Part shown: piece after piece, positions 2,180 to 26,641 of the stretch
How positions within the stretch are numbered: position 1 is the first letter of the stretch
How the letters are laid out: each line of letters opens with the position of its first letter
Assembly (NCBI GenBank): GCA_048939465.1
Contig: JBHLPL010000008.1
Coordinates: 454 to 32,453, forward strand
DNA length: 32,000 bases
Direction of reading: 5' to 3'
From: Promethearchaeota archaeon
Lineage (GTDB): Archaea > Asgardarchaeota > Odinarchaeia > Odinarchaeales > JBHLKK01
The notes under the pieces: generated by a model
Seen by the model: the letters and a program-made list of their open reading frames with translations, nothing else
What the model was told of the DNA's origin: nothing
Databases searched by the model: none
Made by a program: the position numbers and the translations under genes

Positions 2180-2399
2180 CTTCTTCTCCGCAAGAAGACT
2201 CCACCCGAAAGCGTGAAGATGAATTGCGAGGAGTTTAAATAGTTGTTTTCACGAGAAGCATATTGAATTGAGTCGAGGTAAAACTCGCCAATTCTCAAAT
2301 AGGGTGTCAGGGCAGGAACTGCCCGCAGAGCCTGTGAGACATGTCCCGGTGGGGAATGGATGAAACAGGAAGCTCCATCCGAAGGGTGGGGTAGTTCAC
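2180..2399 (+). mobile_element. Non-autonomous IS200/IS605-like element, class A (left end, TATA, omegaRNA-like scaffold, right end), copy E1
   Basis: Starts CTTCTTCTCCGCAAGAAGAC after TTCTAT, then a left hairpin and TTTAAATA at 2234-2241. Contains GGGCAGGAACTGCCC and ends GGAAGCTCCATCCGAAGGGTGGGGTAGTTCAC, typical of archaeal IS605/IS1341 right ends. Homologous to 8146-8371 and 22851-23071. Confidence 0.85.
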
Positions 2400-2435
2400 A
2401 AACCGGTTGTTCTTACTAGTCTTGGTGATTCTGCA

Positions 2436-4403
2436 ATGATCCCGATACAGAGGGTAGTTTTATACAAACACGGAGTCGGATACTTCGAAAGGCGGGGAAA
2501 GGTCAGAGAAACAGCAGCGTTGAAATTAAGGTTCAAGAAAGCTGAGATGAGTGATGTTTTGAAAAGCCTTTCTGTGATGGATTTGGGCGGTGGAAGGGTT
2601 TCTACCGTATCCTATGAGGCCGCTCCCACCATTTCGAAACTGCTTGAGAATATCGCAGTCAATGTACCTGAAACGAGTTCCTTAACCGAGCTGATAAAGC
2701 AAATCACTGGTATTGAGGTTGAGATTTCTTTCAACGGAGAGAAAACTCAAGGAAGAGTTCTGGGAATCGAGACCACCGTGGAAGTGGAGGATAAGGTTAA
2801 ACGAAATATCGACCACATCGTCCTTTTGAAAGATGATTCAATAATTACTGTGAAGCTTTCAGACATCAAGAATCTAGCTATTATGGATGAGGATGTTAAA
2901 AGAGATCTAGCGTATTTTGCGGACATCATTTCAGACTCAAAGAAAGAGGAGCTTAAGTCCGTTACCATTCTTTTTGAAGGAGAAGGAGAAAGAGATGCTG
3001 TGATATCTTACATGATTGAGGTCCCGGTCTGGAAAACAAGCTATCGATTGATAATCTTTGAAGATCGGACAGTCCTTCAAGGATGGGCTATCGTGGACAA
3101 TATCTTGGATGAAGACTGGGATGGTGTGGGGCTTTCGCTGGTTGCAGGACTGCCGATTTCATTTCGTCACGATCTGTACACTCCCCGGTATGTTGTCCGT
3201 CCTGAGGTAGAAGTTGAAGAAAGACTTGGGGTGGCTCCAGTAGAACTTGAAGAAGGGGCTGAAGCTGCTGAGCGGGCCGAGATGAAGGCATATGCGCTGG
3301 CAGATAGACCAGCTCCCGTGGGGGGTCCCGGCCTAGCTAAGAAGGCCAGAGCTTTCCGCAGTGCCATGGAACCACGAATGGACCGTGCAATTGAGACTGT
3401 TGAAACCATCGCGGAGGCCAAGGAAGCTGGAGAATTCCTGGTGTATAATGTAACTGTGCCTGTTACCGTAAAAAGGAATCAATCTGCTCTTGTTCCCATT
3501 CTGACTAGTGATGTGGATGGAAAGAAAGTTCTTGTGTATCAAGAGCATGCAAGACGCGGCAATCCGATCATGTGTCTTGAACTGACCAACAATTCCGATC
3601 TGACTCTGGAAAGCGGACCGGTTACTGTCTACGATGGAGGTGTTTATTCAGGTGAATGCATGCTACCTTTTATGGCGGAGGGTGAAAAGCGTCTCTTACC
3701 TTATGCTGTTGATCTGGAAACGACGGTGACTCGTGAGGATAGAATGAAGGACGAATCCGTCCACAAGGTCATTGTACGGGGACCGGTTGTTGAGAGTCTA
3801 TATTATAGAGCCCGTGAAGCCAAATACAAAATCAGGAACAAGACCGATGAAAACAAGGAGATAATCGTAGAGCACGAAAAAGAGCATGGATTTGAGCCTG
3901 TTGATATGGAGAAGCCGAGCGAAGAGACTGCAAGCTATTATCGATGGAGAATAGCAGTTGATTCGAAAGAGACAACGGAGTTCGTTGTAAAACTAAGAAG
4001 GCTGATCTCATCAAGTTTGTCCGTTGTCGGAATTACTTCTTCCGTACTTGAATTCTATTTGAGAAACAAATTAATCTCAGAAGAGGAATCTGAATACCTC
4101 GGCAAAATAGTCAAACTCTCTGAAGAGAAAACTGGTATTGAAGCGGAAATAGCTAAGTTAGAAGGTATGCAGAAGAAGATCTTTGAAGATCAGCCGAGAC
4201 TGAGGGATAACCTTAAGGCGTTGGGCAAAACCAGACAGGAGGACGAGCTTAGGACGAAATATGTCACAAAGCTATCTGAACAGGAGGACGCTTTAGAGAA
4301 GCTCAAAAAGCGAAGAGATTCTTTGTCTTCGAAATCTCACAAGTTGCAGTTGGAAATTGATGCGGCAATCAATGAGTTTGCGAAGTCTCGACAAGACCAC
4401 TAG
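2436..4403 (+). CDS. DUF4139 family protein
   Basis: N-terminal RVVLYKHGVGYFERRG, WKTSYRL..QGWAIVDN..DEDW..V.LSLVAG.P motifs and a C-terminal coiled coil. Confidence 0.8.
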   Translation: MIPIQRVVLYKHGVGYFERRGKVRETAALKLRFKKAEMSDVLKSLSVMDLGGGRVSTVSYEAAPTISKLLENIAVNVPETSSLTELIKQITGIEVEISFNGEKTQGRVLGIETTVEVEDKVKRNIDHIVLLKDDSIITVKLSDIKNLAIMDEDVKRDLAYFADIISDSKKEELKSVTILFEGEGERDAVISYMIEVPVWKTSYRLIIFEDRTVLQGWAIVDNILDEDWDGVGLSLVAGLPISFRHDLYTPRYVVRPEVEVEERLGVAPVELEEGAEAAERAEMKAYALADRPAPVGGPGLAKKARAFRSAMEPRMDRAIETVETIAEAKEAGEFLVYNVTVPVTVKRNQSALVPILTSDVDGKKVLVYQEHARRGNPIMCLELTNNSDLTLESGPVTVYDGGVYSGECMLPFMAEGEKRLLPYAVDLETTVTREDRMKDESVHKVIVRGPVVESLYYRAREAKYKIRNKTDENKEIIVEHEKEHGFEPVDMEKPSEETASYYRWRIAVDSKETTEFVVKLRRLISSSLSVVGITSSVLEFYLRNKLISEEESEYLGKIVKLSEEKTGIEAEIAKLEGMQKKIFEDQPRLRDNLKALGKTRQEDELRTKYVTKLSEQEDALEKLKKRRDSLSSKSHKLQLEIDAAINEFAKSRQDH

Positions 4404-4540
4404 AAGGAAGCCTTTCCCTTCCTGTTTTGACCTCACTCAGATTCTTGTCTCCAAATTCTTTTAAGAATAATTCTTTCAGGAAGAATATTAAGGCCGGGAA
4501 TTTATCTTGGCGTGAACAGCGTTAGTTTGGAGGTCTTGAC

Positions 4541-5455
4541 ATGAGAATCTTGACAACGGTTATTGGAAGCTACCCTGTGTGCGGTAACGAAGGTCCAGAC
4601 GCTATTAGGGCAGCTGTAGATGTTCAGCTTAGTGCCGGCATAGACTTGATAAGTGACGGACAAGTTAGACATGATATGATAAAATACTTCACAAGTCATA
4701 TTCCCGGTTTCGAGATAAAGGGGAACGAATCGGTAATAGTTGGTAAAATCCATCCGAGTGATGACAAGTCGATAGCCGTAGACGATCTTATGCGGGTCAA
4801 AAAATATGTTAAGGGCAGAGCAAAGGTGAAGGGCATAATTACTGGACCCATGACTCTTATCTCTTCATGTAAGATCACCAAGGACTCACCTTATGATAAC
4901 ATTTTTGATAGAAGGCTTTATGAGGATGCAGCTGAAGCTCTAGCAGTGGAAGCGAAGCAACTGACAAAGGCAGGAGCTGATTCCATCCAGGTAGATGAGC
5001 CCTTCTATTCTGTGGGAGTCCCTATGGATCTTGCTAAAGAGTGCGTAGAACTTATTGTTAACAGCCTTCGTGTACCCGTTTCCCTTCACGCATGCGGTGA
5101 CATAGGAAAGGTATTCGATCGTCTGCTCGACTTCGATGGAGTGGACGTGCTCAGCCACGAATTTGCTGCCTCCCCCCGTAATCTTGAGGCCGTTACTCGA
5201 CAGAAGCTTGAAGAGCACGATAAGAAACTTGGAGTGGGCTGTGTAAAGACGAATACAGAGCAAATTGAGACGCAGAAAGAGGTCTTGACTTTACTCAAGA
5301 AGGCAGCTGAACTGGTTGGTTTTGAGAATATGTGGATTCATCCGGACTGCGGCTTGAGACTACTGAATTGTGATGTTGCAGAATTGAAGCTTAAGACAAT
5401 GATGAACGCCACCCGACAATTCATTGAGGAGTCAGACATAGAGTCCGAGATATAG
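4541..5455 (+). CDS. metE: Cobalamin-independent methionine synthase, archaeal core (catalytic domain only)
   Basis: TTVIGSYP, Q..AGIDLISDGQ.R, KGIITGPMTL, IQVDEP, Zn ligands LHAC and HPDCGL. Confidence 0.85.
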   Translation: MRILTTVIGSYPVCGNEGPDAIRAAVDVQLSAGIDLISDGQVRHDMIKYFTSHIPGFEIKGNESVIVGKIHPSDDKSIAVDDLMRVKKYVKGRAKVKGIITGPMTLISSCKITKDSPYDNIFDRRLYEDAAEALAVEAKQLTKAGADSIQVDEPFYSVGVPMDLAKECVELIVNSLRVPVSLHACGDIGKVFDRLLDFDGVDVLSHEFAASPRNLEAVTRQKLEEHDKKLGVGCVKTNTEQIETQKEVLTLLKKAAELVGFENMWIHPDCGLRLLNCDVAELKLKTMMNATRQFIEESDIESEI

Positions 5456-5489
5456 TTGTGGCTCTTAGTCCGTTCAATTCTCGGAGAGC

Positions 5490-6716
5490 TCAATCGATTC
5501 TAGGAGGAGCTTCCTTTCTGATTTCAGAAATTAGAAGATTGGAATCTAGGTATATTGTAAACGAGTGATCTTCATGTTTCAGTACCACGGGTACGGGGAA
5601 TTTCTCGGCCTTTTCTATTTTGGATTTATCAATTGAGAATTGTATTCTACTACTGCAGTGCGGGCAGACAACAACCTTCGATATTCTTCTCAGAGGCTCT
5701 GGCTCTTCTTCGGGTTCTATCTTGAATGCAGTTCGTTTCTTATCTATCCAGCTATGTATTGTAACTCTGGCTTCTGCCAAAAAGGACTTGAGATTGCTAA
5801 GCATATTCAGAACTGTAGTCTTGACTCGCTGCTTCTTGATTCCAGTCTCAGACATGAAGAAAAGTGATAGATTGTAACCCGGTTCCGGCTTCTCTAGAAC
5901 CGTGAAGACCCCCTTCTCGCCCAGCTTTCGTGTGAGTTTGTTCAATATGTAAAGGTCAAATTCATCTTTTACAGGAAATGCTAGTGACAAAACTGCGGAG
6001 TTGATGGTTTTTTTGGCGACTCCGTCACTGACTTTGAACTCCTGATATTTCGCATGTTCGCATATTTCGTCACTAAACACACACGGATAGTCTGGTCCGT
6101 GGGTTGGACAGTTGAATGGTTCTAGATTCAATATTATGTCTAGTACTTGATCTACTCCCATGAGCTTAGGAGGTTCCTTAACATCAATTCTGCAGAACTC
6201 AGCGCCTTCCCACATGCTACTGGCGAGTTCAATCTGGTGATTTGGGGCCAGAGCAGTCGTAATCTGATTCGAGGCAGGGATACATACAAAGTTACATAAG
6301 GCCACTTTTGAGAATTGTTTTCCCCTCTCAAACGCAGGGCAGTGTGTGATCTTGAGTGTGAGATTGCCTTCGCCGAACTTCTTTACATCAAACTCAAAGC
6401 CAAGAATTGGCAAACTGTTTTGATAGAATTCTTCTGTGACATCTATTCCTTTTCCGACTATTCGAAGAGTGTTCTTTATCTGAGACATTAACGCACCCAT
6501 CGATTTTTCCCTCTGCTCAGAAAGCAGGGTTGTTGCATCGCCCCCATATTTCTTCACGATCTCAGCGATGGCCTCGGTTTGAATTAGGAAGAGTGCATCA
6601 TGCAAAATCTTAAGCCTCGATTGGATATCCGTTTCGGATACTCCATCCACTATCGGTCTGTCATCCATTTCTATTACCTCTGTCGGTGGGTTTGAATCAT
6701 GTTCAAGCAAATACAC
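5490..6716 (-). CDS. Three-domain protein: V4R/ATC-hydrolase-like domain, ARPC4 (Arp2/3 subunit p20)-like domain, C-terminal CxxC Zn ribbon
   Basis: aa ~30-181 have LKITHCP..C..VC..G.EFCRI. aa ~186-331 contain TINSAVLSLAFPVKDEFD..K..R..VFTVLEKPEPGYNLSLF, matching ARPC4 SINSVRVSIAVKQADEIE..K..R..FFILRRKPVEGYDISFL. aa 351-354 are CPHC. The start may be Met17 (6668). Confidence 0.75.
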   Translation of the reverse strand: MYLLEHDSNPPTEVIEMDDRPIVDGVSETDIQSRLKILHDALFLIQTEAIAEIVKKYGGDATTLLSEQREKSMGALMSQIKNTLRIVGKGIDVTEEFYQNSLPILGFEFDVKKFGEGNLTLKITHCPAFERGKQFSKVALCNFVCIPASNQITTALAPNHQIELASSMWEGAEFCRIDVKEPPKLMGVDQVLDIILNLEPFNCPTHGPDYPCVFSDEICEHAKYQEFKVSDGVAKKTINSAVLSLAFPVKDEFDLYILNKLTRKLGEKGVFTVLEKPEPGYNLSLFFMSETGIKKQRVKTTVLNMLSNLKSFLAEARVTIHSWIDKKRTAFKIEPEEEPEPLRRISKVVVCPHCSSRIQFSIDKSKIEKAEKFPVPVVLKHEDHSFTIYLDSNLLISEIRKEAPPRID

Positions 6717-6822
6717 TCGATTCTCACTAATAAAGTCTTTCTAACGAATATGAGGCATAAGATAGAAAACATTTATTACACAAAATAAAGAGAACTTTAT
6801 TCAATGATAAGGAGGCAAAATT

Positions 6823-7332
6823 ATGGGAAATCTGAGAATTTTCAGGAAAGCTCTGACGATGACTACCAGATCAAAAAGGAGGTTCTTTTCTGCTATTGGC
6901 ATTTACTGCGTTCTCTCGTGGTGGGTTGCGATTTCAATACATCTAGGAGAAACCGTTCTCGCTATTATGGGAATCCTTGGCGGACTTATCGTTGCAGTTC
7001 TGTACGGCTTTGTCTTAACTCAATTTAGAAAGACTCAGATCGCCACCCTAAAATGCATAGGGTGGGGGAATGACAATATTCGACTTTTGATGATCGGTGA
7101 ACTCCTGCTAGTTTCTCTCCTAGGATTCATCATAACGCTGGAAATAGACATTCACATTTTGGGATTAAGTTGGTATGTTGGTGTAGCACCTGGTATAATA
7201 ACTCAGTTTGTTTTCTCAGGTCTTTCTCTGGCTCTTACGTTTGTGATAGTGATTTTCGCTCAAATGCCAGGAATTATTATCGCTCACTGGAGGACTCTTC
7301 AGGTTAGACCCATGGTGGCACTAAAGGCATAG
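6823..7332 (+). CDS. Minimal FtsX/MacB-type ABC permease (4 TM)
   Basis: RKTQIATLKCIGW...LMIGELLL FtsX-domain signature; four hydrophobic segments; directly upstream of a LolD-type ATPase. Confidence 0.75.
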   Translation: MGNLRIFRKALTMTTRSKRRFFSAIGIYCVLSWWVAISIHLGETVLAIMGILGGLIVAVLYGFVLTQFRKTQIATLKCIGWGNDNIRLLMIGELLLVSLLGFIITLEIDIHILGLSWYVGVAPGIITQFVFSGLSLALTFVIVIFAQMPGIIIAHWRTLQVRPMVALKA

Positions 7333-7349
7333 AATGAGGGGGTTAAAAA

Positions 7350-8054
7350 ATGTCAAAAGAAGAATCCATAATTCTCGCGCAAGGCGTCTCAAAAGAGTAC
7401 AAACGTGGGAGAGAAGTAGTCCAGGCGCTAAGAGGCGTGAACCTCGAAATCAGAAGAGGAGAACTTGTATGTATTTTTGGTCCCAGCGGAAGCGGTAAGA
7501 CGACTCTACTGAATGTGTTGAGCGGACTGGACCAGCCTTCTGTTGGACGTATCATACTGGATGGTACAGACACAAGTGTGCTGGATGAAAGACTCTTCCC
7601 CAGAATCAGACGAGAAAAAGTTGGTTTTGTCTTTCAAGATTTCAATCTAGTACCTGATATGACAACCATAGAAAACGTTGAATCTCCTCTCTGGCCCACT
7701 GATACCAAATCGAAAGCAATCGAAAACAAAGCCTTGGCCCTGCTAAGAGAGGTAGATCTCCTTGAAAGAAAAGATCACAGACCGAAGCAGCTTTCTGGGG
7801 GCGAGCAGCAAAGAGCAGCTATCGCTCGTGCGTTGGTTAACGATCCTACTGTGCTATTTGCTGACGAACCGACGGGAAATCTCGATACCAAGACTGGTCA
7901 GGAAATCATGAGACTCCTCAGAAGAATTAATAAGGAACAAGGAACGACCGTCATAGTCGTAACCCACGATCAGAGTCTACTGGAATATTCGGATAGAGCT
8001 TTCAACATCGTCGATGGAAAGGTATCGGAAGTTAAGTCGCGTAGGGCATCTTAG
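7350..8054 (+). CDS. ABC transporter ATP-binding protein, LolD/MacB/SalX type
   Basis: Walker [18 protein letters not shown], signature [21 protein letters not shown]. Confidence 0.95.
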
Positions 8055-8087
8055 GAGCTCGGTCTCCATTGCTCTACCGCCCCGCTC

Positions 8088-8095
8088 TTTTTTTT
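8088..8095 (+). terminator. Poly-T terminator of the ABC operon
   Basis: T8 run about 35 nt after the ATPase stop codon. Confidence 0.5.
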
Positions 8096-8145
8096 GGTGT
8101 TCCTCTTATATCAAGAGTTTTAAGAGCGTAGAACTAAGCTTTTAT

Positions 8146-8371
8146 CTTCTTCTCCGCGAGAAGACTCCGTCCGAAAGGATGGAGACGAATTGCGAGGAAT
8201 TTAAATACCTGTTCTGACGATAGACATGTAGAATTGAGTCGAGGTAAAACTCGCCAATTCTCAAACATAGAGTCTCAGGGCTAGGAAATGCCCGCAGAGA
8301 GCCTGCAAGACACATCCCTTTACGGAATGGATGAAGCAGGAAGCCCCATCCGAAAGGGTGGAGTAGTTCAC
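8146..8371 (+). mobile_element. Non-autonomous IS200/IS605-like element, class A, copy E2
   Basis: Follows TTTAT. Left hairpin CTCCGTCC-GAAA-GGATGGAG, TTTAAATA at 8200-8207, GAATTGAGTCGAGGTAAAACTCGCCAATTC identical to E1, right hairpin CCCCATCC-GAAA-GGGTGGAG then TAGTTCAC. Confidence 0.88.
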
Positions 8372-8408
8372 ATCTCTTCAACGAATTACTCTCTGAGAGT
8401 GAGTCCAA

Positions 8409-9035
8409 ATGAGTTCTGGCAAAAAATCCATGAAATCCATAATAAAGAAGATGGATCAGAACATTAACGAGGTCAATGTGAAGCAGATCGATGACATGGT
8501 AAATGAGATAATCTATACAAAAGCTAAGGATGGAAGAATCTTTGTAGCAGGAACGGGCCGATCCGGTCTCGTAGGAAAGGCGTTCGCCATGCGCCTGTAT
8601 CACCTAGGTTTTGATGTGGTTGTTCTTGGCGAAACCATAGTACCTTCAGCATCGAAAAGAGATTGTGTGGTGGCGATATCTGGTTCCGGTAAGACGGATT
8701 TCACGGTAGACACGGCAGGATTGGCCAGAAAGATTGGGGCTCGCGTTATTGGGGTTACCAGCGAGGAGGAATCCCCACTCGCAAAGATAAGCGATATTGT
8801 TGTTATTGTCAAAGGTAGAACTAAGGAAATGGTGGATGAATCGAAGGAGAAATTCAAGTGGGATGCTAGGCAAATAACGGGCCTTCATGCGCCTCTGAGC
8901 CCTCTCGGCTCGATGTTTGAACTTACGGTAATGCTATTCCTCGAAGGGATAATTGCAGCCCTGATTGAGAAGCTGAAGATATCGGAGGATACTATCCAAG
9001 AAAGACATGCAAACATTGAGACCATTACGTCTTGA
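8409..9035 (+). CDS. phi: 6-phospho-3-hexuloisomerase (SIS domain)
   Basis: RIFVAGTGRSGLVGKAFAMRL.HLG, GET..P, ISGSGKT, PLGS.FE, HAN.E. Confidence 0.9.
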   Translation: MSSGKKSMKSIIKKMDQNINEVNVKQIDDMVNEIIYTKAKDGRIFVAGTGRSGLVGKAFAMRLYHLGFDVVVLGETIVPSASKRDCVVAISGSGKTDFTVDTAGLARKIGARVIGVTSEEESPLAKISDIVVIVKGRTKEMVDESKEKFKWDARQITGLHAPLSPLGSMFELTVMLFLEGIIAALIEKLKISEDTIQERHANIETITS

Positions 9036-9078
9036 GTACCTCTTGGTCTGTATTTATCACGTGGTGTCGCGGCTGGTT

Positions 9079-9921
9079 CTATGTCGGAAGAAACTGGCTT
9101 ACCCATGGCCAAAGCATTCCGATTGCCACAGAGAACAAAAAAACACCAAAGATGATTTTGAGTTTTTTGGACGAGATGCCCAAAGCTATACGTGGGCCCA
9201 AGTATGACCCAATGATGCTACCAATGACAACAACGATGCCTAACACAACATCCAGACTACCAAAGACAGCATGTCCCATTGTTCCGCATATTCCTGTCAT
9301 TATGATAGTAAACGTTGATGTTGCTACAGCTATGTGAATCGGCATCCCGCAAATGAAAACCATGACAGGAACAATTACGGCGCCTCCTCCGAGACCAAGC
9401 AACCCCCCCGCCAGCCCCGCGAAAAATCCTGCAATGAGACTCGGAATTATCTGTATAATATACTCGCTCCTCCTTCCATTTGAGTCGATTATTGCTCGTT
9501 TCCAAGTGAATCTTTTGGGTGTGCACTCTGTCACCTCCTTTTCTCCAACATTTGCCCGTATCATCATGGCCAAGCTGGTAGCCATAAGGACGGCCCCGAA
9601 GATTGCTTGGAGTCCTAATGATTCTAATTGAGTGGAGAGCAAGGCTCCTAAGAATGCTCCAACAGCAGCGGGGAGCCCTAATGCCAGTCCTACTCTATAA
9701 TCTACCATATTCTTCCTTGCATAGGCGATCGTACCCGAGATCTTGGAAAAGATTATCATGAACATACTAACTGCCACTGCCGCGTGAATATCCACCCCAA
9801 ATATCATGACAAGAATCGGGACTAGGAGAGATCCTCCTCCGATGCCTATCATAGTAGATATACAACCTACTCCCACAGACATCAGCGAGACTGCCAACGC
9901 AATATACCACGGAAATATCAT
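9079..9921 (-). CDS. Sulfite exporter TauE/SafE family membrane protein
   Basis: Duplicated GIGGG..LVP / GLGGG..IVP motifs and A.A.S.F..I. Start taken at MIFPW (9921) because the ORF-track extension to 9948 lies inside element E3. Confidence 0.85.
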   Translation of the reverse strand: MIFPWYIALAVSLMSVGVGCISTMIGIGGGSLLVPILVMIFGVDIHAAVAVSMFMIIFSKISGTIAYARKNMVDYRVGLALGLPAAVGAFLGALLSTQLESLGLQAIFGAVLMATSLAMMIRANVGEKEVTECTPKRFTWKRAIIDSNGRRSEYIIQIIPSLIAGFFAGLAGGLLGLGGGAVIVPVMVFICGMPIHIAVATSTFTIIMTGICGTMGHAVFGSLDVVLGIVVVIGSIIGSYLGPRIALGISSKKLKIIFGVFLFSVAIGMLWPWVSQFLPT

Positions 9922-9926
9922 TCTAT

Positions 9927-10274
9927 CTTCTTCTCCACAGGGCTCCATCCGAGAGGGTCAAGATGAATTGCGTTGTGTTTAAATGACTTTCTGGTAATTA
10001 AGTTTTGGGTTTGCTGCTCGCAAGAGGAGGGTTGCCCGTGGGCATGGACATAAAACTCGGTCTGGGAGCGCAGGTCCTGCGGGCACGTCTTGCTCGACAG
10101 CGTGCTTGAGTGCTTGTGGTACAGTAGAGATCGAGCTCACCCGGAGGTGAAAGCCTTCCTGTGCGGTCATTGATCTAGAGCGTAAAGACCTGTCCTCTGA
10201 GGAGCCGAAGCGTCCTCGGGAGTATGAAGCCGAGAGGGAGAAAATTCCTTGTGAAAGCTAGGAGAAGTTCGCAC
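9927..10274 (+). mobile_element. Non-autonomous IS200/IS605-like element, class B (long structured RNA), copy E3
   Basis: Same left end as class A (TTCTAT|CTTCTTCTCC...CCATCCGAGAGGGTCAAGATGAATTGCG), TTTAAATG at 9978-9985, body collinear with 13787-14086, degenerate right end GGAGAAGTTCGCAC (end +/-2 nt). Confidence 0.75.
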
Positions 10275-10410
10275 AGTATTCTCCTAACACATTCTTCCTT
10301 CTCCTCTTGAATTTCTGGCAAAAACCTTCAATTGCTACTTAGGCTCTGTTCTTCACGATCGCTTTAGGCAGAAGAATCCACCAATATCGTTAAATCCTTT
10401 GGCATTTTAG

Positions 10411-11460: not shown

Positions 11461-11473
11461 AAAAAAGAAGGAG

Positions 11474-13484: not shown

Positions 13485-13733
13485 TAATCACACACCTCAC
13501 ATGGTTTCTCATTTATCCGATTTTAATCGTAAAAGATTGTTTTAGTAGCAACTAGAACTTCTATATAAACCTTACGCTCAAGAAGTCTTATGAACTATTA
13601 GAGATACTCTTATTCAAAGCAATAGGCTCCGATTTTAAAGGAATATTACTGCGATCAGTAATCACAATCCTATTCCGATAGTTCCCAGAAGAATTCAAAG
13701 TGTCAGCCAACCCTATTCTGGTCAATTGTCTTT

Positions 13734-14086
13734 CCTTTTCTACGTGAGGACAGCCCACCGAGAGGGTTGAGACGAGTTGCGGTATCTTTAAATAACTTTT
13801 TCGGCAATTAAGCTTTGGATAGGATGCTCGTAACAGAAAGGTTGCCCAAAGGCATGGGTGCAAAACCCAGTCTGGGGGTGCAGGCCCTGCGGGTATATCA
13901 TGCTTGGCAGGGCTGTCCCGTGTCTGCGGCGCACACAAAGGACGTGAAGCAGCCCGAAGGCGAAAATCTTCCTGTGTATCTGTAGATCCGGAGCACAGAA
14001 ACCCCCCTCCGAGAAGCCAAAGCGTTCTCAGACGCTAAGGAAAAAGAGAGGGAGGAGGCCCTTTGCGGAAGCTGGGAGTAGTTCAC
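13734..14086 (+). mobile_element. Non-autonomous IS200/IS605-like element, class B, copy E4
   Basis: Diverged left end CCTTTTCTACGTGAGGACAGCCCACCGAGAGGGTTGAGACGAGTTGCG, TTTAAATA at 13787-13794, body homologous to E3, ends GGGAGTAGTTCAC. Confidence 0.78.
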
Positions 14087-14109
14087 AGCTTTGACCTCCG
14101 GGCTTTAAG

Positions 14110-14928: not shown

Positions 14929-14987
14929 GAATGACGGGACCAAAAGAAAAGGTGTCAACCGCAGAAGCTTCAAAAATAAAGAGTATT

Positions 14988-16211
14988 TTAATACGCACTC
15001 GAAAGCAGTTGCACATTTCCTATGCGCACTTTCTTCAGTCCCGCTTTTTTGGCCACTTCCAAGCATTCATGAGCGTGGTTCCTACTCGTAACGGGCAAAT
15101 CTGTCATGAAATAGTGAGGAAAGAAACCTAGTAGTGCATAGGGGATGTTCGGACTTATCTCAGCAATGAATCCTGCAATCTTTTGTACCTCCTCCTTGTC
15201 GATGTAACCAGGTATGAGCAGCGTGCTCGCTATCAAAGGGGGAGGGTCAGGTCTGGCTTCTATCATCTGTCCGAGCCGTTTGAAATTCTGAAGCGTATAC
15301 TCGTTTGAAACTCCGCACAAAGCAATGTTCAGATTCTCATCAAAACACTTCAGATCGAACTTCACACAACCCCCGCTCTCAAGAGAGAGTTCCATTGCTT
15401 TCATTGCCAGACTCCAATTCATAGAACCATTTGTCTCCCAGCAGACTCTAAATATCTGACCAAGTTCTTTTGCATTATTTGATGCTATCTCGGCGGTTTT
15501 CAGAGCATGAGGCATTTGAGGAGTCGGATCGCCTCCGAAAAAGCAGATGCAGGAAACTTTGTCATTCACCTTGCCCGCTAAGTCCTCTGAACTCATAATC
15601 GGTTTTAATTGCCTAGTATTCTCCCTGAAATGCCAGTTTTGGCAAAACATGCAGTCGAAGTTACACCCCCCCAAAAATACTGCCAAATTCGCATAACCGT
15701 ATTCTGGTCCGTTGCGGTTAGCATATTTTGGATAGCCCGCCCCTGTTCCTGCTGGGCACACCCAGTCTGCCACACAGTTTGTCGGCAACGGGTCATAGTA
15801 CCATGAGAGTACCCCTCGTTCCGGTATCCCTGCAAGCCTTACAAGCTTCTCACCGACGTTTGTGACCATACCACAGTATCCTTTTTCTCCGGGTAATATC
15901 TTGCATCTGTTTACACAGAATCCACAACTAATGCCCTCTTTGGGCGGCTGACTCGGCAAATCGTAAAGCCTCTTACTTTCTGCATGTTTCATTGAAGTAT
16001 AGACCAGAGCCTCCTCGGGCTTATTCCTAAGACAACTAAGACACACATCCACACCTCGTGATATGAGAATGCTTCTATTGCCACATATCTTGCACTCTGA
16101 TTCTGCACAGCCCGGCTCTCTGAATATTCTGTACAAATTCGTTTCCTCAATATCTTCTGTATCAAGTGATAACCGGCAATGATCTAATAACAGTTTGCTC
16201 GATCCAATCAT
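14988..16211 (-). CDS. Radical SAM protein (PflA-like / AmmeMemoRadiSam-type)
   Basis: CxxxCxxC in GCNFDCMFCQN, N-terminal CGFCVNRC..GYCG, FFGGDPTP, ETNG, KFDLK. The true start is probably downstream of 16211. Confidence 0.85.
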   Translation of the reverse strand: MIGSSKLLLDHCRLSLDTEDIEETNLYRIFREPGCAESECKICGNRSILISRGVDVCLSCLRNKPEEALVYTSMKHAESKRLYDLPSQPPKEGISCGFCVNRCKILPGEKGYCGMVTNVGEKLVRLAGIPERGVLSWYYDPLPTNCVADWVCPAGTGAGYPKYANRNGPEYGYANLAVFLGGCNFDCMFCQNWHFRENTRQLKPIMSSEDLAGKVNDKVSCICFFGGDPTPQMPHALKTAEIASNNAKELGQIFRVCWETNGSMNWSLAMKAMELSLESGGCVKFDLKCFDENLNIALCGVSNEYTLQNFKRLGQMIEARPDPPPLIASTLLIPGYIDKEEVQKIAGFIAEISPNIPYALLGFFPHYFMTDLPVTSRNHAHECLEVAKKAGLKKVRIGNVQLLSSAY

Positions 16212-16412
16212 AAACTGCAGTGCTGTAAAAACCTTTAGGTATTATCCACGTCTTTATTCAAAAGATGGCAACGTCAAAAAATAAGACTTAAATCGGAACT
16301 TCATGAGGAGACAACCCCCAAAAAGGCTGATATTCATTAATGCAATTAGTTAAACTTAAAAGGGAGAGTCCATTTAACTAATAGCAAATCAAACAAAGAT
16401 GAGGAATAAAGA

Positions 16413-16844
16413 ATGGCTGAGGGATTTGTCGGAGCTAAAATCGTTGGTGTAATTCTAGCAATCGTCGGAGTCCTACTGATCGTAGTTGGAGCAACCTCGT
16501 TACTTGCAATCTCAATTCCGGGCTTACCAGCTGAGATCATTACGGCACTTGCAGCACTGAGTTCGAACGCCTACATAATGATTGTCTACGGCATCATCGC
16601 TATGGGTGTCTCGGTCGGTCTGTTCCAGGCCCAAGAATGGGCTGCTGGGGCGGCTGCCGTTTTGCTATTAATCGTAGTTGTTTCTTCGGGATTTACATTT
16701 TACACTCTCTGGGTTTCTATGGGTTTGGCTGGTATTTGGGGTGCCTTGACAGGTCTGAGCATACCCGTTTGGATTGATATCGGTGTACTTATAGTATCAA
16801 TAATCTGCTTGGTCTATCTAGTTACCGCTAGTGGCTGGCGTTAG
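16413..16844 (+). CDS. Small integral membrane protein (about 4 TM)
   Basis: 143 aa, almost wholly hydrophobic; followed by a T-rich tract. Confidence 0.75.
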   Translation: MAEGFVGAKIVGVILAIVGVLLIVVGATSLLAISIPGLPAEIITALAALSSNAYIMIVYGIIAMGVSVGLFQAQEWAAGAAAVLLLIVVVSSGFTFYTLWVSMGLAGIWGALTGLSIPVWIDIGVLIVSIICLVYLVTASGWR

Positions 16845-16954
16845 AAAACCTCATAAATAACATCTCTTTTTTTTAATTGTCTGTTTATGATTCCTGTTTC
16901 CCAATTCCTATTTGTACGTATCAAGAGGCTTGGAGGGTAGTCAATCCGGTTTGT

Positions 16955-17659
16955 TTAATGGGTTTTTGCTGCCATGATATAGGCATCTTCCCCATCCTGA
17001 TAATATCTTTTGACGACGCTTGAGACTTCAAATCCCAGCTTCTTATAAAGACTGATAGCCGGAGCATTTGAAACTCTCACTTCCAATATATACTCGGAAG
17101 CTCCTCCTTCTTTCATTTCATTCATTGCCCTTTCCATTAATTCGAAGCCAACACCGTATCCCCTATAGGCATCTTCAACTGCTATTGACACAACGTGCCC
17201 CCTCTTGACCCAGGTGACATCAAAACTTGATCTCCCCTTCTCCAGCCGGCACATAATATAGCCGATTATTTTTCGATCACTAATGAGAAAATATCGTGAA
17301 CCTTCCAGTTCCAAGAATCTAAACCCAGCGCTCAATGAAGACGAAATCTCATAAAGTCTTGATAGCCTATCTTTCACCTGATCTTGGGCAATACCGGTGA
17401 TTATTGCGTATTCTTCAGCTGTTAGGCCGTTTTTTCTTGTCGTGCGCAGAGCGTTCAGGATTCCTTCTAGTTCCTTTTCACTGGCTAACAGGAGTTCAGG
17501 ATCCCTTTCTGCTACAACAAAAAGATTTGGATAGGTTCTGTGAAGGTTTTTGAAGAAAGAAGAGGGATAATTCTCCGGCAGGAAGGACATGTTGATCTCT
17601 ACTACTTCATCAATATCTTCCTCTTTGAATTCTCTCAACCGCCAGAGCCTTTTTCCCAA
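16955..17659 (-). CDS. ard1: N-terminal acetyltransferase Ard1/Naa10 family with a ~77 aa inserted winged-helix domain
   Basis: LPENYP, GYIMCR.E, GHVVSIAV..YRG.G.G, LEVRVSN..AI.LY.KLGF, YY.DGEDAY. The insertion lies between FVVAE and KIIGY. Confidence 0.88.
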   Translation of the reverse strand: MGKRLWRLREFKEEDIDEVVEINMSFLPENYPSSFFKNLHRTYPNLFVVAERDPELLLASEKELEGILNALRTTRKNGLTAEEYAIITGIAQDQVKDRLSRLYEISSSLSAGFRFLELEGSRYFLISDRKIIGYIMCRLEKGRSSFDVTWVKRGHVVSIAVEDAYRGYGVGFELMERAMNEMKEGGASEYILEVRVSNAPAISLYKKLGFEVSSVVKRYYQDGEDAYIMAAKTH

Positions 17660-17772
17660 GCCGCCCTCACCTCTTCGGAATCACAAATTAGTAGTAATAA
17701 CAACATATTTAAATTTTCCAAAGCCCAGTCTTTCCAAAAGACTTTTATCATGATTGCTGTTCACTTCAACCT

Positions 17773-18951
17773 ATGGAGTATTTCCGTTATGGCACACCAT
17801 CTTCCACCGGTTTGGCCTTTCGAGATTTACAAGAGATTGTCGAGTCTCTGTTTCAAGTATCGGCATCATATTTAGACCACACGCATTATGGCGTCCCCAC
17901 ATTCATCTTGGAGCAAGATCAAGAAACAGAAGAACCATTTGAAAAGCTTCGAGCAAAACTCGAAGAACACAATTTGATGCCGACCCTCAGGAACGAGAAG
18001 AGAACAATACCCACAATCACTTCAGCAATCGCATCAAAGTCTGAAAACAGACAAAGCGTAACGCTTCTTAGAATAATGCCAAAGATGGAACGTCCTCAAA
18101 GGGATCGCAAGTGGAACCTCATCTTGTTTGGAGCCACTATTATAACTGTGGCCATTACAGGATATTTAATGGCTACAAGCCCCGACTTTCAATATGTATA
18201 CGGGGTGTTGTACCCCCCGGTTGGACCATTGGAGGTAATTATTACATTCACCTTGGCACTGATTGGGATTGTAGGGTTACATGAATTAGGTCATTTGATT
18301 TCTCTCAAGAGACATAAGATCAAATCATCTTTACCTTATTTCATTCCTGGTCTTCCCTTTTGGGGTCTTCCGACGTTTGGAGCCGTAATAGTCCAGCGAA
18401 GTCCTCCCACAAACCGTAAGGAGCTTTACGATATGGGGATAAGCGGTCCCTTACTTGGTTTTGCAGTCTCATTAATAGTAACAATAGTCGGTATAATGGT
18501 TTCTGCAGTGCTCACCCAAACGGATTACAATAACCTTATACAGAACTTCGAACTGGGGAGCATACCAGAACCCCTGATTTTTACACTTCTTACCGCCCTG
18601 CTATTTCCAGGAGGTCATTACATTTACCTTCACCCAATAGGACTTGCCGGCTGGCTTGGGATGCTCATAACAGCACTTAATCTATTCCCAATTGGCCAGC
18701 TTGATGGAGGACATGCAACCAGATCTTTGTTTGGCTCGAACTCTAAATATGTTTCCATAGGCGGTGCAGTAATATTATCAGCACTAGGTTATTTTTTCAT
18801 GGCAATACTTGTGTTGTTTATGGGCGGGATAGATCATCCGGGACCCCTAGATGACGTATCAAAACTGCCACTCGGTCGGAAGATACTCTCGGTTTCAATC
18901 GTAATAATTATTGTACTTTGCACTCCGCCGCTTATACTGAGTTTCTTCTGA
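17773..18951 (+). CDS. Site-2 protease (M50 intramembrane metalloprotease)
   Basis: HELGH, PYFIP..TFGAVI, GISGP, NLFPIGQLDGGH. Confidence 0.93.
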   Translation: MEYFRYGTPSSTGLAFRDLQEIVESLFQVSASYLDHTHYGVPTFILEQDQETEEPFEKLRAKLEEHNLMPTLRNEKRTIPTITSAIASKSENRQSVTLLRIMPKMERPQRDRKWNLILFGATIITVAITGYLMATSPDFQYVYGVLYPPVGPLEVIITFTLALIGIVGLHELGHLISLKRHKIKSSLPYFIPGLPFWGLPTFGAVIVQRSPPTNRKELYDMGISGPLLGFAVSLIVTIVGIMVSAVLTQTDYNNLIQNFELGSIPEPLIFTLLTALLFPGGHYIYLHPIGLAGWLGMLITALNLFPIGQLDGGHATRSLFGSNSKYVSIGGAVILSALGYFFMAILVLFMGGIDHPGPLDDVSKLPLGRKILSVSIVIIIVLCTPPLILSFF

Positions 18952-18962
18952 GGGGAACAGCT

Positions 18963-19652
18963 ATGGAAGAATGGCAGAAGCATCTTATAGAATATCTGGT
19001 AAAGAAAGAAGCGATACTTTTTGGGGATTTCAAACTGAAAAGTGGCAGATACTCTCCTTATTTCTTCAATCTCGCCAACGTCATGCGTGATGGAGAAGGA
19101 ACAATGAAAGCTGCAGAAGCCTACGCAAACGCCATACATTCTTTCATTGGACTGGACACCGTTGATTACATACACGGACCTGCCTACAAGGGAATTCCTC
19201 TTGCAGGAGCAACTGCGGTTGCTTTGTTCCAGAGGCATCACGTGTCTAAGAGGTGGGGGTATGATAGAAAAGAACCCAAAACCTATGGAGCCCACGAGTT
19301 ATGGCTTGTAGGGGACATTCGAGATGGCGATAAGATACTGATAGTTGATGATGTGGCAACTACCGGAAGAACAAAGATAGACGCAATGAATAGGATTATG
19401 GAGACCTCTGAACGTACAAACCTTCAGTTCACAGGGGTTTTGATCATGCTGGATCGAAAGGAAATCAATGAACAAGGGCAATCAACTTCAAGCTATTTGA
19501 AGGAACGAGGGTTAAAACTCTACTCTATCCTTGATGCCCCCATGGTTTTCGATTATATGCATGGTCGTTTGGTTGAGGAAGCAGTCTATGTTGATGAGGA
19601 GAAGTACCGGAATTTCCAAGAGTATTTCAGGAAATTCGGTATAAAAGCCTAG
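18963..19652 (+). CDS. pyrE: Orotate phosphoribosyltransferase
   Basis: FGDFKLKSGR.SPYFFN, GPAYKGIP, DRKE.K.YG, ILIVDDVATTG. ATG at 18963 preferred over the ORF-track start at 18918. Confidence 0.95.
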   Translation: MEEWQKHLIEYLVKKEAILFGDFKLKSGRYSPYFFNLANVMRDGEGTMKAAEAYANAIHSFIGLDTVDYIHGPAYKGIPLAGATAVALFQRHHVSKRWGYDRKEPKTYGAHELWLVGDIRDGDKILIVDDVATTGRTKIDAMNRIMETSERTNLQFTGVLIMLDRKEINEQGQSTSSYLKERGLKLYSILDAPMVFDYMHGRLVEEAVYVDEEKYRNFQEYFRKFGIKA

Positions 19653-19655
19653 TTG

Positions 19656-20306
19656 CTAGGGGCTCTGCTCTGATCTCTCCTCGCTGTGGCCTTCCTCGAT
19701 CTTCTGTTCTTCTTCAGTCCCTTCCTGTTCTTTTTCCTTCCTTGCGCTGAGAACTATGTCAACAATTAGAATTACTAAGACTATAATGATTACGAAGATA
19801 AGAAGTGCTTGTGCACCTCCGACTCCGAAAACCGCTCTCAACCATAGAATGAATAAACCGATGCGAGGAATACTAAACACCGTTTTACCGATGATGTTCG
19901 AATAAGGAATTGGCTCGGGATCTGGAAGCGGATTAGTATCGGGGTTGTCTCCCTTAGTTCGGAAGTACCAGTCGCCGTTTTGCTGGTACTTGTCAATAAC
20001 TCTGTGTACAACAGGAATGCTTGGATCTATTCCCCACAAGCCAGGAGTCACGACGAAAAAGACAATGACTTCATCCACACTGATTTGGTCTGGCTGAACA
20101 TGTCTAACGAAAAGTATATCTCCTTCCCAATATGTAGGATGCATACTGCCTGAAGTAACGACAACAATTGGGGTCGAGGTACCCATGGCTGCTTGAAGCC
20201 CAAAATGGAAGCCATAAACCCCTGCTACAATTACCACGACTATTATTGCATAAGTGGCAACTTCCTTCTTCCAGGACTCTTTTGAACCTTCTGTATTCTT
20301 GGCCAT
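19656..20306 (-). CDS. sec11: Signal peptidase I, archaeal Sec11-type (S26B)
   Basis: VVTSGSMHP..GD, VVHRVI, TKGDN, IIGK; N- and C-terminal TM segments. Confidence 0.92.
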   Translation of the reverse strand: MAKNTEGSKESWKKEVATYAIIVVVIVAGVYGFHFGLQAAMGTSTPIVVVTSGSMHPTYWEGDILFVRHVQPDQISVDEVIVFFVVTPGLWGIDPSIPVVHRVIDKYQQNGDWYFRTKGDNPDTNPLPDPEPIPYSNIIGKTVFSIPRIGLFILWLRAVFGVGGAQALLIFVIIIVLVILIVDIVLSARKEKEQEGTEEEQKIEEGHSEERSEQSP

Positions 20307-20433
20307 TCAATATCCCGGGACCTGTCGATTTTCCACTTCATATGGAATTTCTTTCTTTTAAATTGTCTCCCCAGTGCCACCCCTTTTGTCTTTCAATGGA
20401 ACGTGGCAGCTCCCTTTAAGAAGTATTCTGTTT

Positions 20434-20478
20434 TCTTTTCTCCAAGGAGATCCTATCCGAAAGGGCGGAGTGGTTCAC
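20434..20478 (+). mobile_element. Collapsed mini-element (left-end 5' part, one hairpin, right-end tail), copy M1
   Basis: TCTTTTCTCCAAGGAGATCCTATCCGAAAGGGCGGAGTGGTTCAC aligns to a fusion of the E2 left end and the E2 right end. Confidence 0.7.
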
Positions 20479-20537
20479 CTTCAAATTAGTAATTCGCTGC
20501 TTTTCTGATGATTGATCTTCGTCGGGCCCGTGTGATG

Positions 20538-20990
20538 CTAATGACCAAATTCCTTCATCAGTATTTTGACGTAAGGTGGATAACAGCATCCTTCAAGTAT
20601 TTGCTGGAACCCCTCATAGGTTTCGGCGTTCCCATTTTGAGTCGTTAGTCTTCCTGAGTATATGTTCATGAATTTACGAGAAATATTATCAAGAAGATGG
20701 CTGACAGCCTCTTTCGGTAATTTTGTGGAGCAGATCATGGCAAATGTGATGCCTTGTTTGCTTTTGTGATACACTCTTGCAATTTCGCTGGTTGAGCTCT
20801 CTCCTGATTCAAAAGGAGTTGGGATTTTCAGACTCTGTACAGAATTCTCTAATGTGTTCATGATAGTCAGACTCATCTGGCCCTCAGGCAATGCTGTGTA
20901 TTTTACTAGACAGTTTCCTTCCTTGCTGAATACATATATCGCCTTAATGATTTTTTCATCGGTTTCTTGAAGCCCAGCCATCTTAAACAT
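20538..20990 (-). CDS. Longin-domain protein (eukaryotic signature protein)
   Basis: IKAIYVFSKEGNCLVKY beta hairpin; YHKSKQGITFAMIC strands; helix AVSHLLDNISRKFMNIY; YEGFQQIL helix. Confidence 0.65.
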   Translation of the reverse strand: MFKMAGLQETDEKIIKAIYVFSKEGNCLVKYTALPEGQMSLTIMNTLENSVQSLKIPTPFESGESSTSEIARVYHKSKQGITFAMICSTKLPKEAVSHLLDNISRKFMNIYSGRLTTQNGNAETYEGFQQILEGCCYPPYVKILMKEFGH

Positions 20991-21406
20991 TTCCTTGATT
21001 TTGTAGCCTAGCTACATAATTATACGTCACTATACTATAAAAGCATTTTGCTTGAATTCAATTATTCGCAAGCTCCTTGGTACCTTTGTTGAGATATTCG
21101 CAGATTGTGTGTAGAATTATTGTGATTCTCTTATTTAAACTCTGCTCATTGCGAAGTTTCATGAAAGAGCGTTGCTAATACTCTGACTGCGTACTGAATA
21201 GGTTTCTGAGTCTGAAAATCCCCGATGCAAAAAGATTAATCGAGAACGCCAATTCTTTCTACCTTGTTCAATTTTAGATCAGGAAGAGAAAGAGTGAGTG
21301 CTCCATATGACGTACAAGTATGAAGCTTAATCATCCTTTTTACCAAAAGGTTTATGAAAAAAGGTCTTTATATATTCTATAATGGAACCGGATAGATGTT
21401 AGGAGT

Positions 21407-21703
21407 GTGTTACGGGTGCCAATTCTGAAAGATTCTCAAAAAATCAAGCGATTTATCAAACTTGTTTTTGATATGGCTGGTCAGCAGAAAATTCCGATTT
21501 TGGATGAAAAAACACTGTCTGAAATTAGAATCAGTGGCAGTAACATCTGTTGGGAAGTAAGATTCAGGTATAACGGATCAGATGACGGACCTGTCAAAGC
21601 CTTTCTGATACTTGCGCAATACTTCCACAGTATAATCATAAAGAAGGGAGATGTTTTTTACATACCTCACGGCGCAGAGAGCTATAGATTAGAGTCGGAA
21701 TAA
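21407..21703 (+). CDS. Hypothetical protein (98 aa)
   Basis: GTG start after GGAG and an AT-rich TATA-like tract near 21368; converges on the next gene; no motif recognised. Confidence 0.4.
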   Translation: MLRVPILKDSQKIKRFIKLVFDMAGQQKIPILDEKTLSEIRISGSNICWEVRFRYNGSDDGPVKAFLILAQYFHSIIIKKGDVFYIPHGAESYRLESE

Positions 21704-21730
21704 TCATCAATTACTTTTTCAAGCAATTTT

Positions 21731-22309
21731 CTACGCTCTACCACCACTCATCAGAGTCTTCAGTTTTTTTAGTTCCTTCAACATTTCGGATTTCAATCCA
21801 CCAACGCTCGTCTCTTCCTCTGCTACCGCTGCGACCATTAACTCCCCAGGACTCATGGTTGGTGGGGCTGCAACTGGTGGTGCCACCATGGCTGGTGTTG
21901 TTGGGACTGCTGAGGGCGGGGCTGAAGCAGAGGGTGGAGCAGATGGTGGAGCAGAAGGAGGTCCTGATGGTGGAGCCGACGGGGGAACTGCAGAGGGCTG
22001 TTCCAGAGAAGGAGGTGCAGCAGATGCAGCAGGACTCCCGTGCAACGATGACCAAAGCTCCTGAGGAGACATCATTTCTCCTCTTTTTGCCAGTACTGTG
22101 GTCAACACTGCCGTTGAAGTTGTGGTTTCACTGGCAGGAAGTCTTCCGAGCTCAAGAGTCTCTAGATCTTTCCTTATCCGTTTTAGGCTTTCATTAATAT
22201 CTTTCGAGGCCTGCGTAATCATTGTACTGTACTTGTCGATAGCCTCCATGAAGTAGTCTCGAATGCGAGCTAGGACTTTCACACTTTTTGTGATTCTATC
22301 ATCCAACAA
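21731..22309 (-). CDS. Coiled coil + Pro/Ala/Ser-rich linker + C-terminal amphipathic helix protein
   Basis: N-terminal heptads (aa 1-55), PPSA-type repeats (aa ~99-150), C-terminal GLKSEMLKELKKLKTLM. Confidence 0.7.
   Translation of the reverse strand: MLDDRITKSVKVLARIRDYFMEAIDKYSTMITQASKDINESLKRIRKDLETLELGRLPASETTTSTAVLTTVLAKRGEMMSPQELWSSLHGSPAASAAPPSLEQPSAVPPSAPPSGPPSAPPSAPPSASAPPSAVPTTPAMVAPPVAAPPTMSPGELMVAAVAEEETSVGGLKSEMLKELKKLKTLMSGGRA
21848..22033 (-). repeat. Coding low-complexity repeat (PPSA/PPSG units, ~12 nt period)
   Basis: PPSAPPSGPPSAPPSAPPSASAPPSA with varied codons, so the repeat is at protein level. Confidence 0.8.
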
Positions 22310-22475
22310 TGATTCACTCCATTGTTTCCTAATATTTCTTAATCATTCTATCTTTTTAAATTAACCTATTCTCAAATCGTTCTTTAATTTAACTTACATA
22401 TTCTTAAGTATAGTTATACAACTCGCAATTAATTCCTTCTATCAATAAACCACATCTCTTCATAAAGATTTTTGC

Positions 22476-22522
22476 TTTCTTCTCCGCAAGAAGACCCCGG
22501 CCGAAAGGATGGGGCGGTCCGC
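22476..22522 (+). mobile_element. Collapsed mini-element, copy M2
   Basis: TTTCTTCTCCGCAAGAAGACCCCGGCCGAAAGGATGGGGCGGTCCGC. The tail GGGGCGGTCCGC differs from GGGGTAGTTCAC only by four transitions. Confidence 0.72.
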
Positions 22523-22587
22523 TTCAAAGAATTTCTGTACAATCATTCTTATTAGCTTTAAAAGTATTATGAGGCATCCAAAAGGCA

Positions 22588-22842
22588 TTGCTTGCTCTGG
22601 GAGGCTTACTCTTGGACTCAAATCTTATGCTAATTGGCTTTCTCATCATGATTGTGGGTATAGCAATGGTCATGTTAGGCGCTTTCTCATCCTTTGAAAG
22701 GGGAAGAAACGCTGAGACTGGAGGAGCCATTCTGATCGGCCCTATTCCAATAATATTCGGTGTCGGCAGGAAGTTGTTTTTCATCGCTGTGTTAGGTGCC
22801 CTGGCCCTCGCAATATTGATGGCCGTGTTCTTCCTGATTTAA
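22588..22842 (+). CDS. DUF131 (TIGR00304-like) small membrane protein
   Basis: GGAILIGPIPIIFG signature with flanking TM helices. Confidence 0.8.
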   Translation: MLALGGLLLDSNLMLIGFLIMIVGIAMVMLGAFSSFERGRNAETGGAILIGPIPIIFGVGRKLFFIAVLGALALAILMAVFFLI

Positions 22843-22850
22843 GGGTTCAT

Positions 22851-23071
22851 CTATTGCCCGCAAGAAGACCCCATCCGAAAGGGTGGAGACGAATTGCGAG
22901 GAGCTCAAATACTTGTTTTTACGACAAGCTTGCGGAATTGAGCCGAGCTAGCACTCACCAGTTTGCAGAGACAGAGTTCTAGGGCAGGAACTGCCCGTAG
23001 ACCCTCCCAGACATATCCCGCTGGGAGCGGATGAAATAGGAAGCTCCTCATGAAGGCCAAGAGTAGTTCAC
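22851..23071 (+). mobile_element. Non-autonomous IS200/IS605-like element, class A, copy E5 (decayed TATA and right hairpin)
   Basis: Follows TTCAT. Left hairpin CCCCATCC-GAAA-GGGTGGAG, CTCAAATA in place of the TATA, GGGCAGGAACTGCCC, ends GAGTAGTTCAC. Confidence 0.82.
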
Positions 23072-26618: not shown

Positions 26619-26641
26619 TCATCTTATTGGGAGGTGTCTCT

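Follow-up and report, generated by a model that had tools for sequence, protein, structure and literature searches.

Archaeal elements that have the ends of IS200/IS605 insertion sequences, encode no protein and lie in intergenic DNA were reportedly described in a 2011 PLoS One study of palindrome-associated transposable elements (PATEs) in Haloquadratum walsbyi, which is older than omegaRNA and is said to make no guide-RNA claim for that reason. PATEs often encode omegaRNAs on which TnpB acts in trans (Meers et al. 2023, doi 10.1101/2023.03.14.532601). Here we describe a family of such elements in a 32,000-nucleotide stretch of DNA (the window) from a Promethearchaeota archaeon, on contig C137 of assembly G000 (1.96 Mb in 152 contigs, 91% complete). 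The window contains seven of these elements, which are likely to be non-autonomous IS200/IS605-family PATEs, or miniature inverted-repeat transposable elements (MITEs), that carry a promoter and an omegaRNA scaffold and act as guide cassettes for homing and retention. The original prediction, made from the letters of the window, had presented them as a dispersed family of guide-RNA-like cassettes. A framing as a new class is not supported: gene-less IS605 derivatives with omegaRNAs used in trans had already been described in the work cited above, and the family is an Asgard instance of that published concept.

Several features are common to this family and ISGst2, an IS605-family element of Geobacillus stearothermophilus that encodes TnpB2. 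The transposon-adjacent motif (TAM), TTTAT, and the terminal TTCAC are identical, and ISGst2 and PATEs likewise have subterminal hairpins at both ends, many tnpB-only or protein-less copies for a single tnpA, and a logic of homing and retention. By contrast with ISGst2, the family resides in an Asgard archaeon, has a TATA promoter inside its left end and has a higher ratio of gene-less to coding copies, with about 50 protein-less copies in assembly G000 against 3-4 tnpB genes and one tnpB-linked tnpA. In addition, its type B scaffold (see below) is about twice the usual length, and the family is known from sequence alone. The predicted layout of the guide RNA is that of ISDra2, for which structures of TnpB with its right-end RNA (reRNA), or omegaRNA, are available (PDB 8bf8, 8exa and 8h1j): in both, the scaffold spans the tnpB 3' end as well as the right end, with the guide supplied by the 3' flank. 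The TAM differs, being TTTAT here and TTGAT in ISDra2, and the mini-elements described here have a compact perfect hairpin in place of the coding-embedded 5' part of the scaffold.

All seven elements lie on the + strand (Table 1) and fall into three types, with three copies of type A (~220 nt), two of type B (~350 nt) and two of type S (~46 nt). None contains a protein gene (element sizes 45-355 nt). Every left end has ~20 nt resembling CTTCTTCTCC and then a hairpin with a GAAA or GAGA loop; right ends have a second, related hairpin and finish in GTAGTTCAC or a variant of it, and in type S one hairpin serves for both ends. In four of the long window copies, a TATA box (TTTAAATA or TTTAAATG) lies ~55 nt from the left boundary, and in the remaining one, A3, it is decayed (CTCAAATA) and the right-end hairpin is degenerate. 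The hairpins of the left and right ends have TCCAYCC-GAAA-GGRTGGRG in common, in the same orientation on one strand. In their alignment, 80.7% of cells are paired, with a covariation score that was reached by 0 of 500 shuffles. The original prediction had placed the elements correctly to within 1-3 nt (B1 ends at 10272 rather than 10274), and the shared left end, hairpin, right end and TATA boxes that it described are real in the alignments. Its assignment of the elements to a protein-less IS200/IS605 type, with an omegaRNA scaffold 3' of a conserved TATA box, is also supported, both by the sequence and by homology to tnpB 3' ends.

This homology is clearest in type A, whose last 93 nt match, at 91% identity, the omegaRNA module of a tnpB-only element on contig C2, made up of the tnpB 3' end and the right end. 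The last 18 codons of TnpB remain there as a ghost, which is the sole coding trace in type A. The same 95-nt module is found 3' of tnpB in ~15 loci from Hodarchaeota, Borrarchaeum, Sifarchaeum, Promethearchaeota and Methanosuratincola. To judge from these matches, type A is an internal-deletion derivative of a C2-type element, and its 95-nt module is the omegaRNA region of a TnpB element. We defined the structure of the module by hand, from an alignment of 30 sequences, as three helices plus a pairing between a loop and the 3' end. Its 18 pairs are paired in 96.3% of cells, with compensatory change in seven of them, a result that 0 of 500 shuffles reached. The loop-to-3'-end pairing (GAAC with GUUC), which may be the counterpart of the ISDra2 pseudoknot, is kept in 97.5% of cells. 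RNAalifold runs on whole elements returned muddled structures, and clear support was confined to the type A module defined by hand.

Conservation within type A, measured segment by segment as mean pairwise identity, is uneven. Identity is high in the TATA region (84%), the first stem (85%), the scaffold core (85%) and the terminal motif (94%), and lower in the spacer between the TATA box and the start (62%), the linker (62%), the left end (71%) and the right-end hairpin (66%). The conserved part of the RNA begins at the point where transcription from an archaeal TATA box would be expected to start. This pattern fits selection on the promoter and the scaffold, rather than uniform decay or transposase recognition alone. 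The copies had been predicted to be old and maintained, which this region-specific conservation bears out for type A and which is weakly supported for type B.

The insertion events can be read from two genomes of the same genus (G001 and G002), whose syntenic blocks are 75-84% identical to the window and lack both A1 and A2 at the orthologous loci. The empty A1 site in both genomes consists of ..GGGGCAGTTTTAT joined directly to the 3' flank found in the window, and at the 5' junction of A2 the sister-genome alignment stops exactly after ..GCTTTTAT. These precise empty sites, with the elements placed directly behind TTTTAT, show that insertion takes place 3' of TTTAT and duplicates no target, and they confirm the element boundaries given in the original prediction. 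The orthologous sites likewise lack B1 and B2, and the 5' flanks of ~30 copies read TTTAT, TTCAT, TCTAT or TTTAC.

The ancestry of the elements, the conservation of their structure, the signature of their insertion and the presence of partner genes in the genome (see below) point to a history and a mode of action in which we infer transcription, TnpB loading and cleavage as follows. The long forms would have arisen from tnpB-carrying insertion sequences through loss of the coding region, each keeping a left end with a TnpA-recognised hairpin, an archaeal TATA promoter of its own, and the right end with its omegaRNA scaffold, which normally overlaps the 3' end of tnpB. A Y1 (HUH) TnpA acting in trans would mobilise the elements as single strands. 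The TATA-driven transcript would start at the first conserved stem, comprise a scaffold of ~140 nt in type A or ~270 nt in type B, and read past the terminal TTCAC into the flank, giving each copy a locus-specific guide. TnpB encoded elsewhere, loaded with these RNAs, would cleave the TTTAT-plus-flank site left empty by excision, whereupon the element would be restored by recombination, as in the published IS605 mechanism of homing and retention. The 46-nt type S forms would be minimal one-hairpin derivatives without a scaffold.

Candidate partners are encoded elsewhere in the assembly. Neither tnpA nor tnpB is present in the window, as had been noted in the original prediction, and both map to other contigs: tnpA to C105, and tnpB to C105, to C2 and, in two halves parted by a contig break, to C70 and C55. 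Candidates for the trans-acting TnpB that the prediction had required therefore exist. The protein sequences at the end of C55 and the start of C70 overlap, which identifies them as parts of a single tnpB. C105 tnpA matches Y1_Tnp (PF01797) with 127 bits, and the left and right ends of its element, like those of the tnpB elements on C2 and C70/C55, are those of the mini-elements. The closest TnpB relatives are from Hodarchaeota (83% identity), Sifarchaeum, Borrarchaeum and Promethearchaeota metagenome-assembled genomes (MAGs), which places the host among the Asgard archaea, as the original prediction had supposed. C2 TnpB can be aligned with ISDra2 TnpB along its entire length (PDB 8bf8; E 1e-60) and has kept the RuvC motifs GVDVG, FENL and DRDVN and the zinc-finger cysteines, and in the third TnpB (C70/C55) we read the D, E and D residues by eye. 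In C105 TnpB and in a fourth type of TnpB from a sister genome, the three RuvC positions read D, GD and RD and so are still acidic, with GDL instead of E-[DN]-L at RuvC-II, where aspartate may stand in for the catalytic glutamate. The catalytic triad by which the prediction proposed to tell a nuclease from a repressor is thus found in C2 and in the third TnpB, whereas C105 departs from it at RuvC-II; on these residues TnpB would work as a nuclease and not as a TldR-like repressor. At the start of the C105 element (C105:997-1120) we also observed a complete S-type unit ending in GTAGTTTAC, with a second hairpin between it and tnpA. Either this is a double left end, or the insertion sequence landed directly behind the TTTAC tail of an S element already in place.

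Table 1 Coordinates of the elements in the window and of the partner elements on contigs C105 and C2 of the same assembly.
Feature	Position	Strand	Parts and sequence	Evidence
Type A element A1	2180-2399	+		Sequence, type A alignment, empty site in two sister genomes
A1 left end	2180-2219	+	20-nt 5' segment, then hairpin TCCACCC-GAAA-GCGTGAA	
A1 TATA box	2234-2241	+		Sequence
A1 omegaRNA scaffold (predicted)	~2265-2399	+	Last letters GTAGTTCAC	
A1 TAM	2175-2179	+	TCTAT	
A1 guide (predicted)	from 2400	+		
Type A element A2	8146-8371	+	TATA box TTTAAATA	Sequence, alignment, sister-genome break
A2 TAM	8141-8145	+	TTTAT	
Type A element A3	22851-23071	+	Variant left end CTATTGCCCGC..; TAM TTCAT	Sequence, alignment
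Type B element B1	9927-10272	+	Left end; TATA box TTTAAATG; structured core ~270 nt; right end GAAGTTCGC	
Type B element B2	13735-14086	+	TATA box TTTAAATA; right end GTAGTTCAC; left boundary degenerate, within ~3 nt	
Type S minimal element	20434-20478	+	Left-end 5' segment; single hairpin; right-end tail GTGGTTCAC	
Type S minimal element	22476-22522	+	Decayed tail GCGGTCCGC; folds as single-stranded DNA into two hairpins, -9.6 kcal/mol	
Element with tnpA and tnpB, contig C105	997-2845		Left end 997; tnpA 1150-1557; tnpB 1557-2840; right end finishes GTAGTTCAC at 2845	
Element with tnpB only, contig C2	~25978-27281		Left end after ATTTAT ~25978; tnpB 26093-27244 (383 aa); right end finishes 27281	

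Guide RNAs of TnpB-family proteins also work outside transposition, in the TldR group of nuclease-dead TnpB factors (doi 10.1101/2023.11.30.569447). The original prediction had raised the prospect of a domesticated RNA-guided regulatory system; in a TldR-type network, a nuclease-dead TnpB would be steered to host promoters by the dispersed guides. The ratio of ~15 type A copies per cognate tnpB and the intergenic positions of the elements would suit such a network. However, C2 TnpB and the third TnpB retain the RuvC D/E/D residues and the zinc-finger cysteines, the GD at RuvC-II of C105 and type 4 TnpB may be a replacement of glutamate by aspartate, and the tnpB genes still lie inside transposon ends. 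The predicted guides, moreover, correspond to the flank of each insertion. Genome-wide searches for second targets gave chance-level matches (<=2 mismatches), none of them after a TAM. The 3' flanks are locus-specific, as had been expected, but each predicted guide matches its own insertion site only, and we consider a domesticated network extremely improbable.

A different role for the promoter is suggested by the genes that follow the elements. All five long copies in the window face a co-oriented open reading frame (ORF) that starts 24-184 nt past the right end, and type B copies lie mostly in divergent intergenic regions, with the downstream gene on the same strand in 12 of 16 cases. The elements might therefore persist as portable promoters or 5' leaders whose TATA box drives or regulates the downstream gene. 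Genome-wide, though, a co-oriented downstream gene was found for 20 of 31 long copies and for 8 of 15 type A copies, which is not significant. The sister genomes have the same genes without the insertion, and conservation of the omegaRNA scaffold would be left unexplained, making this explanation very unlikely.

The origin of type B lies further afield. Searches with its core against all tnpB loci in this genome (blastn and tblastn) matched only at the ends, and the core holds no coding remnant. Positions 143-222 and 305-348 of the type B profile do match the 3' end of the fourth-type tnpB on contig C94 of the sister genome G002, directly after the RuvC-III motif, and shorter type B intermediates are present on contigs C127 of G000 and C59 of G002. 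These matches relate the type B core, in enlarged form, to the omegaRNA region of the fourth TnpB type. Type 4 tnpB was found only in G002, where it is split over two frames (L102:541-1854; frames 541-936 and 952-1854) and is probably a frameshifted pseudogene. BLAST searches with type B beyond the genus, in 58 further genomes of the phylum, returned nothing but one right-end match. In the type B structure, 87.5% of cells are paired and the covariation score was reached by 18 of 500 shuffles. One could imagine, although we think it a long shot, that type B is an omegaRNA-derived scaffold that roughly doubled in length once freed from coding constraint and that now works with no cognate tnpB in this genome, either by using a non-cognate TnpB or by benefiting the host, for instance as a structured leader or a mobile promoter in divergent intergenic regions. 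This enlarged scaffold, with no cognate tnpB in the assembly, gives the family some residual novelty, and is the only feature to do so.

Several results weigh against the elements being guide cassettes for homing. The end hairpins, folded as single-stranded DNA, have an energy no better than that of shuffled sequence, so that their support comes from conservation and covariation and not from thermodynamic stability. Among the sequencing runs listed as matching positions 7000-15000 of the window, none was an RNA run. The sole tnpA of the assembly (C105:1150-1557) reads D-Y-F-H at the HUH metal-binding motif, at which ISDra2 TnpA and 5 of 7 aligned Asgard relatives read D/E-H-x-H and a sixth relative H-A-R. 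Its catalytic tyrosine (SYF) is retained, and C105 TnpA may be an impaired or unusual transposase; with YFH in place of HUH in the only tnpA, present-day mobility is doubtful. The two sister assemblies (78% and 82% complete) yielded no tnpA, and the family may be immobile at present. Contigs from four other metagenome runs (two studies), compared over positions 3150-23149, bridge the sites of B1 and B2 with both elements present, and none of them contains the joint of an empty site. For type B, no full-length type 4 tnpB was found in the 91%-complete assembly, in which tblastn gave C-terminal and N-terminal remnants only, and compensatory cells numbered 19 against 12.5 expected, a weak excess that 10 of 500 shuffles reached.

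Much of this would also suit inert relics, that is, decaying MITEs that have retained the omegaRNA region through its adjacency to the right end and have neither functional guides nor mobility. The lack of an RNA run, the YFH of the sole tnpA, the fixation of the insertions across metagenome samples and the weak covariation of type B all favour relics, as do the copy-to-copy identity of 68-86%, which makes the copies old, and the decay of both the TATA box and the right-end hairpin in A3. Relics would not, however, be expected to show higher identity in the promoter and RNA of type A (84-85%) than in its spacers (62%), or than in the hairpins that the transposase binds. Furthermore, type A copies of sister species are 81-87% identical to A1, against 75-84% for the surrounding synteny, and occupy different loci. 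Different loci in different species indicate that the family stayed active and constrained, and we regard inert relics as unlikely. In this small Asgard genome, what most long protein-less copies have preserved is exactly the promoter plus the scaffold of the guide RNA, which fits selection at the level of the element by omegaRNA-mediated homing, gene-less hitch-hikers included, and would extend the bacterial PATE/omegaRNA picture to archaea near the eukaryotic stem. Type A also offers a compact natural scaffold of ~140 nt, without coding constraint, for a TTTAT-TAM TnpB, alongside the enlarged type B variant.

The original prediction had expected a large, distributed repertoire of copies, and the family is indeed abundant. 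We found ~70 related places in the 1.96-Mb genome by blastn, and profiles of the two ends (nhmmer) detected 77 left ends and 71 right ends. Paired ends delimit ~15 type A elements, ~24 elements of 280-410 nt, ~11 type S elements and three longer units. The 280-410-nt class comprises type B (~345 nt, ~14 copies, each with a TATA box of its own) and forms of ~290 nt, the latter being mini-elements derived from the third and fourth TnpB types. Several contigs end in these repeats, indicating that the family fragments the assembly and that the copy numbers are lower bounds; in annotation, many contig breaks and 'orphan structured RNAs' of these MAGs are explained by it. In the window, the density of copies is about five times the genome average (7 against 1.25 expected per 32 kb; Poisson 3e-4), and the repeats are far more numerous than chance would give. 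All seven window copies are on the same strand, but we rejected this arrangement as a trait of the family, because it does not generalise beyond the window's contig: neighbouring pairs are co-oriented in 24 of 36 cases genome-wide and in 18 of 30 (p = 0.18) without that contig. Elsewhere in the genome (G000 C48:18818-19219), a type B copy is interrupted by an S-type element, 48 nt long and oppositely oriented, which makes a nested insertion.

Repetitive extragenic palindromic (REP) sequences, which are associated with the TnpA-like Y1 protein RAYT, are short single hairpins with cleavage motifs that are dispersed in intergenic DNA, and type S resembles them. Unlike REPs, type S shares both of its terminal motifs with a true IS605 family of this genome; no RAYT-type gene turned up, and no search aimed at RAYT was made. 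On contig C49 of G001 (L191), an S element lies ~60 nt upstream of the empty A1 site, right after TTTTTAT. The presence of this element in the spacer in which the window has A1 indicates that type S inserts independently.

The genes that neighbour the elements in the window are ordinary chromosomal ones, encoding a thermosome subunit, an ABC ATPase, a SIS-domain protein, TauE and an ECF component. A tRNA scan of the window found none, and no Rfam family matched in the window at gathering thresholds; at E values of up to 1, three loci gave a single match to a long non-coding RNA, at chance level. In the metagenome comparison, joints between ~8260 and ~22980 arise where paralogous type A copies cross-map, and contigs break inside A2. 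At position 21944 of the window, inside an ORF on the minus strand, 2 of the 4 metagenome runs have a 12-nt insertion (GGTGGAGCAGAG), an in-frame length polymorphism between populations.

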